Positions 24,001 to 30,000 of a DNA stretch of 64,000 nt are shown in pieces. The stretch's first letter is position 1. Every line of letters begins with the position of its first letter. The position numbers were made by a program. The DNA is from a phage: sequence record PZ674596.1; one strand, 5' to 3'.

Positions 24001-27000
24001 GGTACTGCGAATATTAATTTGCCAGGTGTTAATACGACTGGTAATCAGAACACAACGGGCAACGCGGCTACTGCTACGAAGTTGCAGACTGCGCGTACTA
24101 TCAATGGGGTGTCGTTTGACGGCTCGGCAAATATTGCCTTGTCGCCAGCAAATATAGGTTGCCCGGCATCTCCTACTGGTTGGTTAACTACAGGAAGTAA
24201 TGGAGGAGCAATAACGACAGCCCAGTTAGTTACTTTGTTGCAAAATAACGGGGCATTCAGTACGAAAGCATGGATCGCTCGTTGTGCATGGGCGTATGCG
24301 AATAGTGCATCCATACCAGACAGTGAAACTGGTTGTGGCATTATTCCACTGGCGGGTGCTGTGATAGAAGTATTCAGCAATAATACCAACAATTACACCA
24401 TTCGAATAACAACGGCCACTACGACAAATGTCTCTGGTGCACTCACTAATGCGGAGTTTATCTATGTGTCTAATGGCTCAAGTTATTCACCTGGATGGCG
24501 CAGAGCGTATAACACTAGAAACAAACCAACAGCTTCTGATGTAGGAGCATTACCGCTTTCAGGTGGCACATTATCTGGAGGGTTAACGTCTTCTGGTGAG
24601 ATCGTTTCAAAATATGCAAATGGTTTCCGCATTGCTTACGGTAACTTTGGGTTCTTTATCCGTAATGATGGGGCGAACACATATTTCCTGCTAACAGCAT
24701 CAGGAGACACATTAGGTTCATGGAACGGTTTGCGACCTATTACAATTAATAATACCAGCGGTGCTGTATCAATTGGTAATGGACTAAATGTGACTGGTGG
24801 CGTAAATGGTAGTTTGAACGGTAATGCTTCAACAGCTACGAAGTTGCAAACAGCGAGAAACATCAATGGTGTTAAGTTTGATGGTTCAGGCGATATCAAT
24901 ATTAATACATTGGTATCTCGTGGCCGAGTTACGGCGTTAAGCGGCTCTACTCAAGGCACTGCTGGCATTCAAATGTATGAGGTGTACAACAATAGCTACC
25001 CGACCACGTATGGCAACGTATTGCACATGAAAGGTGCGAGTGCTGCTGGTGAGGGCGAGTTGCTTATTGGCTGGAGTGGTACGAGCGGTGCACATGCGCC
25101 GGTTTTCATTCGCTCCCGAAGAGATTACACAGGTGCGGCATGGTCAGCGTGGGCGCAGGTATATACATCAAGGGACTCCATTCCTGGTGTGAATGCCACT
25201 GGTAATCAGAACACTACTGGTAATGCCGCAACCGCCACAAAATTGCAGACAGCAAGGAAAATTGCTGGTGTGGCGTTTGATGGCTCTGCCGATATAACTT
25301 TGACTGCGGCTAACCTTAATGCTTACACGAAAACAGAGGTAGCAAACCTTCTAAGTTCCTATGCAAGCAGATCATCACTGACAGGCTATAGTGGCAACCT
25401 GGATATTGTTGCTGAAACACTGGTTGTCAAATCAGGCGGTAGTGGAGGGTTTGCTATATGGGATATTGGCACAACTACTAGCGGTGCCAATATGTACATT
25501 GATCCAAACCCAGGTATCAATACAGTTTGGCGTTCAACGTCTTCAAGGCGCTATAAAAAGGATATTGAAACATTACAAGATCGATATGCTGATGAACTTT
25601 TGTCATTAAGACCTGTTTGGTATCGTTCAATTTGTCGAGGTGACCGAAAGGATTGGGGGTATTACGGCCTTATTGCTGAAGAGGTTGGTGAGATTGCCCC
25701 GCAATATGTCCATTGGCGTGAACCAACAAATAATGATTCTCCAGAAGATATTTCCTCAAATGGTATGGTCGCTGAAGGAGTGATGTATGAGCGTTTGGTT
25801 GTACCACTCATTCATCATATTCAGCAATTGACCAAAAGGGTTGAGGAGCTTGAAACGAAGTTAAATTCACCTAAAGAATAAACAACTTCAATCGGGGCTG
25901 GAGCTAAACCAGCCCCTGCTTAAAAGTATAAGGATATATTTATGAGCTATGGTGCACAGGTTTGGTCGCCATCAAGACAGGAGATGGTCAATGCGTTGGC
26001 CCCTGTTTATTACCTCGATTATTTTACTCCCTCTGGTTCAGGAAGTAGAACATATGAGGTTGAGGCGGGATTGGGAATCGACTATTACATAATGGACGTA
26101 ACCAATGGAAAGTACACAAGTCTTACGGTTTCTGGAAATACCATTTCGTGGTCTGGAGCTAGTGGTAATTTAAACATATTGGTTTTTCAAAAATAATGTA
26201 CGGAAGCAAGATATATCGATCTGACGGGAAGGTCTGGATGTCTCCTTCTTTGTCTCCTATCGTTTTTCAGAGAAAGCAGGTTGTTTCTTTGTCCGGCGGA
26301 ACAGAGTTTAACACCAAAATATCTCCAGATCGTTCACCGATTATTTTTGTTGCCTATTCGAAAGCTGTTTCATTAATAGCCAACAGAATAGTGCGTAACA
26401 ACCAGGTGATTTACAGTTTCGGAGGTCAGGGTAGCGACTCTAGTGCCACGATATACGTATTTTCGAAAGGTATAGCCAAAAAAGAAACTTGGGGCATGAG
26501 TTTTTTCAATGCACAAGGGGAGGAAATCTATAATACGGCAAATATCCCACTTTCATTTACCTTTCTTAATAATACGGAGTGGAACAGCTCTGGAGGGCAT
26601 GTTTTTGATTACCCTCCAGCGATAATCCCAACATATGCGAATGTGTTCGCTGTTCCAGTACCGGGCGGAGCCATGACAATGGTTTATGGATATGCGGCAT
26701 ATGGAAATACTGTTAGCTCGATATTCGTAAACCAACTTAATGGCGGCCATAGTTTTAGCGTAAATGGCAGAGTACCGGTAATAAATAGAAATCTGTATAA
26801 CTGATGAGTAAATGATGAAAAGATTATTTCTAACAATAGCTGTTGTTCTCTCTCTTACTGGCTGCCAGAAATTGCCGACACCTATATGTTATGGTGAAGC
26901 TATCATTGGTGGACAGGAGACAGTCATACCCATATATGCTGTTAAAAAAGTGAACGACTATACCTTATACAAAGCGGGTAGCATCTATAACTGGCGATGG

Positions 27001-30000
27001 GTTGGAGTAGGTGCTTTCTCATCAATCGGTTGCAATGCTGAATGATAGGTAAGTACACACCTACAACAAAAGGGTGAAATGTGATATAAATCCGCCATCC
27101 CGATTTGACTTTTCATGGAGGAAAACATGTCGAACGAGATGGCGGGCGTTACAACAGAGCAAGTTGAGCGTATTGCCGCGATCGTTGCTCGGGAGGTTGT
27201 TGGCAAATTAGGTAAAGAGCTACGTGAAGAAATTGGCCAGGAGGTCAATGATCAGCTGAAAACCTACTTTGGTGATATGACCCCGGCGCAACATAGTATT
27301 CAACACTCCAATCTGGACAAACTCCTTAACCGGTTAGATTCCATCTCAAGTGGGTTCTTTGGCGGCATTGTTTCTAAAATAACGTCGTTCATTATTACCG
27401 CACTGCTTTTGGGGTTAGCCGCGTATGGCGTAAAAAGTGGACTGCAATAACAGGAGATCAAGGATGAAGACTCCGAGAGGCATTCGTAATAATAACCCCG
27501 GTAATCTTGATAAAGGATCACCGTGGCAAGGTCTGGTTGCGAATCCAGACGAACCGCGCTTTTGCACGTTTAAAGACCCTGTTTGGGGGATTCGTGCGCT
27601 GGCGGTGACTCTAATTACCTACCACGACAAACGTCGCGCAAAAGACGGCTCAAGTATCGATACCATTCGTGAAGTTATTGAACGTTGGGCACCGCCGAAT
27701 GAAAACAATACTGACGCCTACATTAATGAGGTGTCTAAAGCCGTTGGTGTAACCGCAGACATGATCATCGATCTGCATGATTACGACATCCTTCGACCTT
27801 TGGTTGAGGCAATCATTCGCCACGAGAATGGCCGAGGCCCGCTAAAAACGCTGAACACCTGGTATGCGGTAGAAGTTATTGAGGAAGGTCTGCGTCGAGC
27901 TGGCGTTGTTAAGCCGGTGAAAACCGTGAAGGCTGTTCCTGTAACTAAAGAAACCGCAGGCGCAACTGTTACAGCAGGTATTGGTCTGGCGCAGCTGGCC
28001 GATGTTATGCCGCAGGTTTCCGCTGCTATGGATAAAGCACAAGGTCATATCTCTAGCGGGGATACAGTACGCATCATCTTCGGTATTGCCACTATTGTTG
28101 TGGCAGGATTCATTGCCTGGTCGCAGGTAAGAAAACACCAGAAAGGGATGGTCTAATATGCTAGGCAGCCTGATGACAAAGCTAAAAGTTGCTTTGATTA
28201 CGCTGGCTGCCGTTCTTTTCGTTCTTGTCGGCGCTTACACGATGGGCGGGAATGCGGTGCGACGAGCAATGGAAGAGAAGGCAAAACAGGAAGACAGAAA
28301 ACGACTTCAAAGCACAGTGGAAGTGGTGAATGAGACGAGCAATAAAATACGTCAGAAAGATTCTTCTGCCGTTCATCGTGAGTTGTATGATAAGTGGGTG
28401 CGTCATTAAACCACAAACCGCCAGCGTATTGTTCTGCGATGGAGCTGGGCCTATCTATATCAGCAATAATGATGTGATGACCGAAGAAACCGAACGCCAA
28501 ATCCTTTTTCACAATACGATGGGAGAGAGAGTTTGCGGTTGGTGATGCGAAGTTCCCCTCACTTGAGGGGAGTACATTATTCTTCGAACAATTTTTCGAT
28601 AGATTTTGTAGGATAGAACAAAGAACGCTCGTTGTTACCAACCAGCTGGATAAAGTCTAAACTTTTATAAAACGCCTTGGCTTTGTCATTTAACGCCTCA
28701 ACGAAAAGTCCATGAATGCCTACAGCAAGAGATGCATTGTACACAACGCGCATTGCATGTGTTACAAGCATTGAGCCAAATCCTTGACCTTGAAGGGACT
28801 TGTCCAAAGCCAGCCTACCCAAAGTAACACTTGGAACATTCCGATAAGGTACCTTCTTTTGCTGGCTTCTTGAAGGTAAGGACTCCTTTTCAAAGCAGCT
28901 ACCTGACAAAGTGTAATACCCTAACACTTTTGGTCTGCCTTCTTTCGTGCAAAGCACATAAGCGCGAAGAATTTTTCCCTCATGCTGCCTTTTTAAGTGG
29001 TTGGTTAAAAAGGCATTTAGTGATTCTTCACCGCAATCAAAACCATTCAAATCATAATCTTTCTCTCCAGAGAAAATTTCTATCTTTATATTATCCACGA
29101 GTAAACTACTCCATGCTTTTCAGACGATCAGCAGCTCGTTTCAGCTTGTCGTTCGGTGCCGGAGGATTGCTTATAGCGTCCATAACCAGATTCCAGGATT
29201 CTTCATTCAGAACTAGTCTACGGTGTTGCTCTATAACTTTCACGGCACGTTCAGATGCACTGCTAACCATAAACTGAGTAATGCTCTGGTTAGACATTGC
29301 GGCAGCTTCCTCGATGATGCTTTTATCGTCATCGGTTAATCTCAAATCGATGCGCTGCTTTTTTAGTGCTGACATGTATTCCTCCTGATGGCCGTGATGT
29401 AGGAAGGCCATCAATCTCCTCTGTTCAAACTGAGTTTTCGACTCAAAAATTACTTTAAAAGGCTATAGCCCATTACGTGTGCATTATCAAATTGTGTACG
29501 GCATATCACCGTACTTGTAATATAGAGGTCATTGTTACTTTTTTCAACAGACAAATACAAGCTATGTTTGCCAATTGTTAATCACAACCTACCATTTAAC
29601 CTTTACACCGCAGCCGTAGGCATTTAGGCTATATCACATATAAGAAAACAAGTTGTTTCAGACGATAATTATATACGCAAAGGGAACTCTCCAATGACCA
29701 AGATCTTTGTGGTTGGCGGCACAAAGGGCGGGCCTGGCAAATCCACCGTTGCCCAGCAAATTGCCGTTTGCCTGAAAGTCAAAAAGAAGAAGAAGGTTTA
29801 TATTACCGATATAGATATTCAGCGCACGACAACGAGCTGGTGTGAAGACCGTCGACAGAACGAAGACCTTGAGCTGATTCCTTTTGCATACGTTCAGGAT
29901 GACATCATTAAGCACCTAAAATCGCTTCAGGGTAGAGCTGAGTTTGTAGTGGTAGATGCTGGTGGCTTCGACTCCGAAATTCAGCGACAAGCGATGCTGA

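Follow-up and report, generated by a model that had tools for sequence, protein, structure and literature searches.

The 64,000-nucleotide (nt) stretch of sequence record PZ674596.1 that was analyzed here (the window) is part of an SSU5-like phage-plasmid of Escherichia coli, about 110 kb in size. Downstream of its tail fibre gene lies a host-range cassette of three genes (25942-27045), and the last of these very likely encodes a receptor-blocking lipoprotein of the Cor family. A sequence-only reading of this DNA had claimed three open reading frames (ORFs) after the side tail fibre gene, and all three were found on the + strand at exactly the positions given. The cassette and the parts of the lipoprotein gene are as follows:

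25942..26196, + strand: gp22-like gene, 84 amino acids (aa); PHROG 557, E = 2.4e-24
26196..26804, + strand: gp23-like gene, 202 aa; PHROG 425, E = 5.8e-49
26812..27045, + strand: cor gene, 77-aa precursor and 60-aa mature lipoprotein; NF047972 and PHROG 1119
26812..26865, + strand: lipoprotein signal peptide (aa 1-17) and lipobox LTGC, read from the sequence
26887..27033, + strand: mature domain between the conserved Cys26 (26887-26889) and Cys74 (27031-27033)

By its family matches, the 77-aa product is almost certainly a Cor-family lipoprotein. It matches the NCBIfam equivalog NF047972, "phage exclusion lipoprotein Cor," with a score of 80.1 bits (cut-off, 31; E = 8.7e-23; residues 2-75 of 77), and PHROG 1119 at E = 7.8e-30. 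The proposal that it is a receptor-masking exclusion lipoprotein is supported by the match to this curated model. In tblastn comparisons, its identity was 59% to the Cor-like protein of SSU5, 58% to that of a Shiga toxin (Stx) podophage, 47% to Cor of HK022, and 41.6% to Cor of phi80. The identical gene (100%) is named cor ("phage exclusion lipoprotein Cor") by RefSeq on 67 E. coli plasmids, and the SSU5 homologue has been annotated as Cor-like since its genome was deposited. Since the family is known and the gene is already annotated as cor, the lipoprotein is not a new candidate, and the novelty of this assignment is low. What is added here is modest: a receptor-binding protein (RBP)-like fold for the 202-aa protein, a divergent SSU5-type clade, and the presence or absence of the cassette on an unchanged J tail tip. 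No match was found in PADLOC for any of the three cassette proteins.

The N-terminus of the 77-aa product is MMKRLFLTIAVVLSLTGC. Its n-region is positive (K3, R4), the h-region has no charged residue, and the lipobox is L15-T16-G17-C18. The signal peptide MMKRLFLTIAVVLSLTG precedes Cys18 (codon 26863-26865), where the mature protein is predicted to begin and to be lipidated. By direct reading, the sequence fits the PROSITE-type lipoprotein rule, although the score of the short Pfam model LPAM_1 stayed below threshold (E = 0.011). Cys18 is found in all seven Cor proteins of alignment A3 and is conserved to at least 90% among the 20 of alignment A5. The LTGC lipobox noted earlier can be retained on these grounds. 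Residue +2 is Gln, and the Asp inner-membrane retention signal is therefore absent. Cys26 and Cys74 are likewise invariant in A3 and at least 90% conserved in A5, a pattern suggesting that they are joined in a probable intramolecular disulfide. Gly56 and Phe69 are also conserved across the Cor family. The 20 representative Cor proteins were obtained by an exhaustive HMMER search; a word-indexed search with Cor alone returned four proteins. One other match, P0099 (1087 aa, E = 3.7e-24 against Cor, with 19 matching stretches), consists of 19 perfect tandem copies of a 56-aa unit and lacks the Cor features. It was rejected as a Cor relative, the match being an artefact of repeat summation, composition, or assembly.

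The comparison with Llp of phage T5, also made in the sequence-only reading, is supported as well. A profile of seven Cor sequences reaches Llp (PDB 8a60_B) over its full length (E = 0.017, 18.4 bits). The best PDB match of the predicted fold of the 77-aa protein is T5 Llp bound to FhuA, with 11% identity in the structural alignment, and the small beta fold of Llp and Cor is present in the model. In mature numbering, the cysteines of the window Cor are Cys9 and Cys57. The bond in T5 Llp is Cys11-Cys58, and the disulfide is described as common to the Cor family (PMC9586334). A shared Cor/Llp fold was concluded independently for other Cor proteins (10.64898/2026.03.26.714494; PMC13164509). As judged by profile and model, the likeness between Cor and Llp is probably a real, distant homology. 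T5 Llp (PDB 8A60 with FhuA; 7QJF) is, like the window protein, a small outer-membrane lipoprotein with one disulfide (predicted here) whose gene adjoins a gene for receptor binding (putative here), and the mechanism expected is periplasmic binding with allosteric closure of the receptor. The two differ in that the sequence similarity is marginal and T5 is virulent. In addition, the T5 RBP, pb5, is one 640-aa protein that is unrelated to the 84-aa and 202-aa proteins.

Lysogens of HK022, N15, and phi80 are protected from FhuA-dependent phages by their Cor proteins, which inactivate FhuA; the inactivation also lowers ferrichrome uptake and protects against colicin M (PMC3594210). Cor of T1 also inactivates FhuA (PMC3594210, PMC9586334). 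The window protein is similar to Cor of phi80, N15, HK022, mEp167, and T1 in its length of 77 aa, its lipobox signal peptide, and the two cysteines of its mature domain. Its gene likewise lies at the end of the tail/host-range block, directly after gp22- and gp23-like genes, and its identity to Cor of phi80 and HK022 is 42-47%. It differs from the known Cor proteins by belonging to a separate sub-clade with the Cor-like proteins of SSU5 and Stx phages (51-55% identity). Its gene starts 7 nt past the stop codon of the 202-aa gene, whereas a gap of about 110 nt is found in phi80 and HK022 and the opposite strand is used in T1-like phages. The carrier is also different here, an SSU5-like phage-plasmid of about 110 kb.

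All three ORFs are real genes, given the strong PHROG family matches and the pattern of divergence from their SSU5 orthologues. Nonsynonymous divergence (dN) is 0.19-0.36 for the three genes, and synonymous divergence (dS) is 2.7 for the 84-aa gene and not computable for the other two. Thus, dN is low while the synonymous sites are heavily diverged or saturated, which indicates purifying selection. The stop codon of the 84-aa gene and the start codon of the 202-aa gene overlap by one base (TAATG), and AAGGA is found 8 nt upstream of the ATG of the 84-aa gene. In GenBank/RefSeq, the 202-aa gene begins 14 codons later, at ATG 26238, and encodes 188 aa (SSU5_024, WP_223666482). With the longer ORF, the TAATG overlap is retained, and the N-terminal motif MYGxxIxxxDGxxWxSP of the Warwickvirus and Stx-phage homologues is recovered. 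On this evidence, the database start of the gp23-like gene is probably wrong.

The two genes upstream of cor had been described as unassigned. This holds for their function only, as their families are known: PHROG 557 and 425, which correspond to gp22 and gp23 of N15/phi80. The 84-aa protein is 68% identical to SSU5_023, 30% to phi80 gp22, and 35% to the homologue in Warwickvirus tonijn. The 202-aa protein is 21-24% identical to the proteins of phi80, HK022, grams, and SECphi4. By sequence comparison, the two are divergent homologues of gp22 and gp23. Neither had a Pfam match above threshold or an NCBIfam match.

The order gp22-gp23-cor is common to the window, phi80, HK022, and SSU5. The trio directly follows J in phi80 and HK022, and follows a tail fibre and an adhesin gene in SSU5. 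In the T1-like phage grams and in Dhillonvirus SECphi4, the pair follows J and cor is convergent. The relevant tail genes of the window are:

16906..21636, + strand: J-like central tail tip gene, 1576 aa; Pfam PF24801, PF13550, and PF09327
21730..25881, + strand: side tail fibre gene, 1383 aa, between J and the cassette; Pfam PF21446 and PF13884

Direct adjacency to gpJ is not found in the window, as the side tail fibre gene intervenes, and the same is true of SSU5. The C-terminal Phage_Tail_Tip domain of J (PF09327) covers aa 1424-1558 (E = 1.4e-41), and over the last 200 aa or so, identity to the J tips of the cassette-bearing phages phi80 and HK022 is 39-42%. The cassette proteins probably dock on the J tail tip. 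An "extended cor cassette" has been described in the FhuA users T1, HK022, N15, ES18, and phi80 as well as in ten BASEL phages that use FhuA, and it is regarded there as a constant trait of phages with this receptor (PMC13164509, section 2.5); every BASEL phage with all three cassette genes uses FhuA (PMC13164509). The locus 3' of gpJ has been assigned to RBPs with accessory and exclusion proteins (BASEL paper PMC8594841; preprint 10.64898/2026.04.02.716166). With three known cassette families adjacent in this order, the suggested placement of the lipoprotein within a host-range module is supported. The window shares with the extended cor cassette (T1, phi80, HK022, N15, ES18, Drexlerviridae, Dhillonvirus) the families PHROG 557, 425, and 1119 in the same order, the one-base TAATG overlap of the first two genes, and the PF09327 type of J tip domain. 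However, its first two proteins are only 21-30% identical to those of the FhuA-user clade, a 4.2-kb side tail fibre gene separates the cassette from J, and the cassette is present in only about a quarter of the related E. coli phage-plasmids that have the same lysis cassette.

The 202-aa protein is rather more probably than otherwise a receptor-binding protein carried on the J tail tip. An AlphaFold model based on 87 homologues is all-beta, with a predicted local distance difference test score (pLDDT) of 70 and a predicted template modelling score (pTM) of 0.72. The RBP of phage Oekolampad was the best structural match of this model; it was ranked first by Foldseek among 350,542 chains, at the non-significant values of E = 0.11 and a template modelling score (TM) of 0.30. 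It lends moderate support to a tail-tip RBP. The reading is also favoured by the absence of a signal peptide or transmembrane segment and by J, which has the same Phage_Tail_Tip domain type as the J proteins of cassette-bearing phages. PDB sequence searches with the 202-aa protein alone and with profiles A1 and A2 gave no meaningful match, and a profile-profile comparison of its family with the Oekolampad RBP aligned only a 13-residue N-terminal motif, G-x-x-I-x-x-x-[DN]-G-x-P. The 84-aa protein is probably a small soluble beta protein, and it is proposed to be an adaptor, accessory, or partner in the receptor-binding module. It was also considered that the 84-aa and 202-aa proteins are the two parts of a split 321-aa LptD-type RBP. 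This is unsupported at the sequence level, since the gp22 and gp23 family profiles gave non-significant results against the Oekolampad RBP (hhalign probability 0.5%).

The LptD module of Oekolampad and Rtp (RBP PDB 9RPT, 9RQI; lipoprotein Rtp45, 9RPS) is similar in that a small J-tip RBP is combined with a cognate periplasmic lipoprotein. Its RBP resembles the 202-aa protein in the modelled structure and in the shared N-terminal motif. It is different in being a single 321-aa protein instead of 84 plus 202 aa, with undetectable sequence or profile homology. The lipoprotein is not Cor-like, LptD is no TonB-dependent transporter, and the blocking is steric and not allosteric. In two Dhillonvirus phages, the signal peptides of the two kinds of lipoprotein are near-identical, but the mature parts show no relation: the lipoprotein of SECphi4 is of the Cor type, MKTLIMICAAFFLSGC (L005 2633-2905), and that of Oekolampad is of the LptD type, MKTLIMICAVLLSGC (L012 3623-3844). 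Near-identical signal peptides before unrelated mature parts, in different receptor modules, suggest a recombination joint within the signal-peptide coding region.

Another possible role for the two upstream proteins is that of membrane-associated Cor helpers in superinfection exclusion, and not of RBPs in the virion. The PHROG names point to a membrane-associated helper, as do the KanT1 authors, who found no structural matches for these proteins and guessed at a membrane role. An exclusion-related role was also assumed in PMC13164509 because of the linkage with cor. The same J tip occurs in Cyrano, from which the two proteins are absent, and Stx podophages, which have no J tip, encode homologues too. 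However, both proteins lack a signal peptide, a lipobox, and any hydrophobic/membrane segment (the maximum 19-residue Kyte-Doolittle value is 0.54 for the 84-aa and 1.38 for the 202-aa protein), so export or membrane insertion is unsupported for both. The best structural match of the 202-aa protein is a proven RBP. The pair is located in the tail gene block, on the strand of the tail genes, and the translation of its two members is coupled. In T1-like phages, cor and the pair are on different strands, and in Stx phages they are about 3 kb apart. Moreover, Cor was reported as the blocking agent against FhuA-dependent phages with partner proteins unmentioned (PMC3594210; 10.64898/2026.03.26.714494). 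A helper role is improbable on these points.

Two further phages have other arrangements of these genes. In the Stx podophage vB_EcoP_phi315 (L006, L015), a Cor-like lipoprotein gene (product 55% identical to that of the window) follows a fibre and adhesin pair, and the gp22- and gp23-like genes are found about 3 kb beyond it, after another tail fibre gene. Podoviruses without a J tip can thus have all three families too, but not as an uninterrupted trio. Warwickvirus tonijn (L013 1952-2227) encodes a lipoprotein of 91 aa whose lipobox is LTGC and which contains two more cysteines. Its gene is convergent with J and immediately 5' of the gp22- and gp23-like genes. The protein is not recognizably Cor in its sequence, and its features suggest that it is probably another exclusion lipoprotein.

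The mechanism proposed for the cassette draws on established lipoprotein biology and on the solved T5 Llp-FhuA complex, carried over by homology. In that complex, Llp occupies the periplasmic face of FhuA, where the plug is jammed and the extracellular loops 7 and 8 are folded inward, and the T5 RBP is kept off (PMC9586334). The Cor precursor would be exported, lipidated at Cys18, and cleaved through the action of Lgt, LspA, and Lnt, and a Cys26-Cys74 disulfide would stabilize the mature protein. Cor would then bind the periplasmic face of the phage's own terminal outer-membrane receptor and lock its surface loops in a shape that the phage RBP cannot grip. Infected or lysogenic cells, as well as debris, would no longer adsorb phages or colicins that use this receptor. 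The 84-aa and 202-aa soluble beta proteins would be made with the tail genes, and the receptor blocked by Cor would be exactly the one recognized by the 202-aa RBP, as with the pb5/llp pair of T5. For annotation, the gene can be given as cor, and the two preceding "hypothetical" genes as its likely receptor-binding partners.

Several observations weigh against this picture of an RBP on the J tip and a matched Cor that shields the host. Support for the RBP fold is only moderate (pLDDT 70, Foldseek E 0.11, TM 0.30, and a 13-residue motif). Receptor-specific RBP families have been defined at >30% identity (10.64898/2026.04.02.716166), and the upstream proteins, 21-30% identical to the FhuA-associated clade, are at or under that limit. 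The window Cor is as close to the Cor-like protein of the Stx podophage (55%) as to that of SSU5, and no target for the Stx-phage protein was reported in the literature searched. Phage Cyrano has a near-identical J tip and no cassette. Finally, no promoter-like site was found upstream of cor, so its expression in the plasmid-prophage state is only presumed.

The receptor is most likely FhuA or another TonB-dependent transporter; FhuA specifically is the first candidate, with chances that are roughly even. The gp22/gp23 homologues fall into three clades: one of FhuA users (phi80, HK022, T1-like phages, Dhillonvirus), one of Warwickvirus and Stx phages, and one of the window and SSU5. Identity is 68-75% within the last of these, 21-30% from it to the FhuA-user clade, and 26-35% to the Warwickvirus/Stx clade. 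Warwickvirus has a different lipoprotein gene 5' of its gp22/gp23-like pair. FhuA specificity is not assignable by homology, because the 202-aa protein, at 21-24% identity, is below the 30% criterion. The literature search found nothing relevant on the receptor of SSU5-like phages.

The same architecture and mechanism could possibly act on a receptor other than FhuA, such as BtuB, another TonB-dependent transporter, BamA, or LptD. The separate clade formed by the gp22- and gp23-like proteins of the window and SSU5 is in keeping with this, as is the greater identity of the window Cor to the Stx-podophage protein (55%) than to the proven FhuA blockers (42-47%). Cor-like lipoproteins are also found in BtuB-using phages (PMC13164509, section 2.5), and the unrelated small lipoprotein Rtp45 applies the same strategy to LptD (PMC12685063). 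On the other hand, all Cor proteins with an experimentally defined target block FhuA (PMC3594210, PMC13164509), the window protein passes a Cor equivalog model built on FhuA-blocking proteins, and the BASEL phages with the complete cassette are without exception FhuA users (PMC13164509). A receptor other than FhuA is rather unlikely as a result of this balance. A bolder and still less likely proposal is that the SSU5-type cassette is a third, so far uncharacterized specificity class of the J-tip RBP and Cor module, with a non-FhuA receptor. Its acquisition or loss, with the J tip otherwise unchanged, would then alter both the terminal receptor and the matching self-exclusion. As a corollary, PHROG 425 and the LptD-type RBPs, now held to be unrelated, would share a fold and an N-terminal docking motif. 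If this were true, the receptor switch would concern a phage-plasmid family present in about 5% of complete E. coli genomes. A cost in siderophore or vitamin uptake could follow if the target is a TonB-dependent transporter.

The cassette is an optional, separately exchanged module, which fits an add-on RBP. The C-terminus of Cyrano J (586 aa) is 99.5% identical to that of the window J, and in Cyrano the tail fibre gene is followed by the holin gene, the cassette being absent at the locus. With tblastn, the 202-aa protein had no match in Cyrano or CMS-2020a, the two phage-collection records nearest by megablast. Since Cyrano has the same J tip without it, the cassette is not required for tail building and perhaps not for infection. 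The cassette is also absent from p09EL50, PhiR41_1, and BHD6 (NZ_CP141793, L010). J of BHD6 (locus 1-1463) has about 170 extra C-terminal residues, an extension that recalls T1-like phages in which a J extension replaces a separate RBP locus. Plasmid NZ_CP061757 (L011) contains the identical cassette behind a different fibre gene and a tail fibre assembly gene. In this plasmid, positions ~2870-2945, compared with 25808-25881 of the window, are a non-coding remnant of the last 24 or so codons of an S74-type fibre gene. This remnant 5' of an identical cor cassette indicates that the fibre was replaced by recombination. Near-identical J tips with and without the cassette are a natural experiment on whether the small cassette proteins act as add-on RBPs.

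Two features flank the cassette:

25894..25916, + strand: GC-rich hairpin with an 8-bp stem, between the fibre gene and the cassette (RNA fold)
27046..27063, + strand: imperfect palindrome TAGGTAAGTACACACCTA at the right edge of the cassette (alignment with Cyrano and SSU5)

The RNA fold of 25882-25941 has a minimum free energy of -18.4 kcal/mol and a centroid, consisting of the 25894-25916 hairpin alone, of -17.3 (z = -2.97). The hairpin was not called a terminator because a T-run is absent. It moves with the cassette, as it is kept in NZ_CP061757 beside the 3' remnant of the S74-type fibre gene, about 100 nt. On the other side, homology to relatives without the cassette restarts at the palindrome (27046), and the megablast match to Cyrano begins at 27044. 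By these alignments, the stop codon of cor is the right boundary of the cassette, at a conserved palindrome. The SSU5 version of TAGGTAAGTACACACCTA is a perfect 18-bp palindrome. About 16 nt beyond the palindrome there is an extended -10-like element, TGTGATATAAAT (stretch 27046-27091), and in Cyrano and SSU5 as in the window, both are conserved 5' of the holin gene. The two are a candidate operator and promoter for the lysis cassette.

The location of cor bears on when it is made. A crude and insensitive consensus scan, limited to sigma-70 sites, found no sigma-70-like promoter in 26200-26811. In 25600-27500, it gave two promoter-like sites (4.3 expected) and one terminator-like site (1.7 expected), and promoter-like sites elsewhere in the region were no more frequent than in shuffled sequence. 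With cor 7 nt behind the 202-aa stop codon and no promoter-like site, a lytic-cycle role is as plausible as the shielding of a lysogen. By analogy with T1 and T5, cor expression may be largely or entirely confined to the lytic cycle. A stricter form of this, in which Cor acts only in lytic growth, protecting against superinfection and keeping progeny off debris with no lysogenic conversion, is a serious contender that falls somewhat short of even. It agrees with the placement of cor so close behind a late gene and with the scan of 26200-26811. In phi80 and HK022, where Cor is active in lysogens, about 110 nt separate gp23 and cor, and HK022 cor is annotated as a moron. Furthermore, T1 Cor and T5 Llp protect against the loss of progeny to cell debris (PMC11990801). 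However, the scan was a crude search for sigma-70 consensus only, read-through or weak internal promoters are possible, and N15, which is also a phage-plasmid, shows Cor-dependent lysogenic conversion (PMC3594210).

The cor cassette is followed by genes for a holin, an endolysin, and an i-spanin/o-spanin pair. The genes beyond the cassette include:

28158-28409: i-spanin gene; PHROG 1026
28330-28545: lipoprotein o-spanin gene, in another frame and partly overlapping the i-spanin gene; PHROG 1275, E = 7.2e-24
28577-29414, - strand: GNAT-type acetyltransferase toxin and TacA-like antitoxin (PF08681), a TacT/TacA-type pair
29694-30362: ParA partition ATPase gene (parA)

The 77-aa protein is a small, predicted outer-membrane lipoprotein whose gene directly precedes those of the holin and the endolysin, and it could be thought of as the outer-membrane spanin subunit of the adjacent lysis cassette. 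However, a complete spanin pair is already present, and relatives with the same lysis cassette do not have the 77-aa lipoprotein. The spanin reading was rejected, as there was no spanin family match and a strong Cor match, and it is extremely improbable. The signal peptide of the o-spanin ends in ...CMISGC, and its gene is a second small lipoprotein gene, distinct from cor.

In megablast searches, the lysis genes are 98% identical to those of phage Cyrano and 81.5% identical to those of Salmonella phage SSU5. The region 25000-27100 is matched by 258 PLSDB plasmids, almost all of them non-mobilizable, and the size is about 100-120 kb among the matches listed. SSU5-like phage-plasmids are frequent in E. 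coli: the lysis cassette was found in 250 of 5426 complete genomes and the three-gene cor cassette in 68, with every copy being plasmid-borne. About a quarter of these phage-plasmids thus encode a predicted receptor blocker, which helps to predict resistance to therapeutic or typing phages and colicins. It also bears on host-range prediction for SSU5-like plasmids, which can carry resistance genes. The toxin-antitoxin pair and ParA are plasmid-maintenance functions of the phage-plasmid.

The side tail fibre ends in a Peptidase_S74 intramolecular chaperone domain. Its aa 1-1217 are 90% identical to the Cyrano fibre, and it is divergent beyond. Antisense and alternative-frame ORFs of up to 327 aa are found over J and the tail fibre gene, at 19500-21200 and 22100-23400. 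They coincide with the heptad-like coiled-coil repeats of J and the Ala/Ser-rich repeats of the fibre, and they look like by-products of repetitive composition and not genes.

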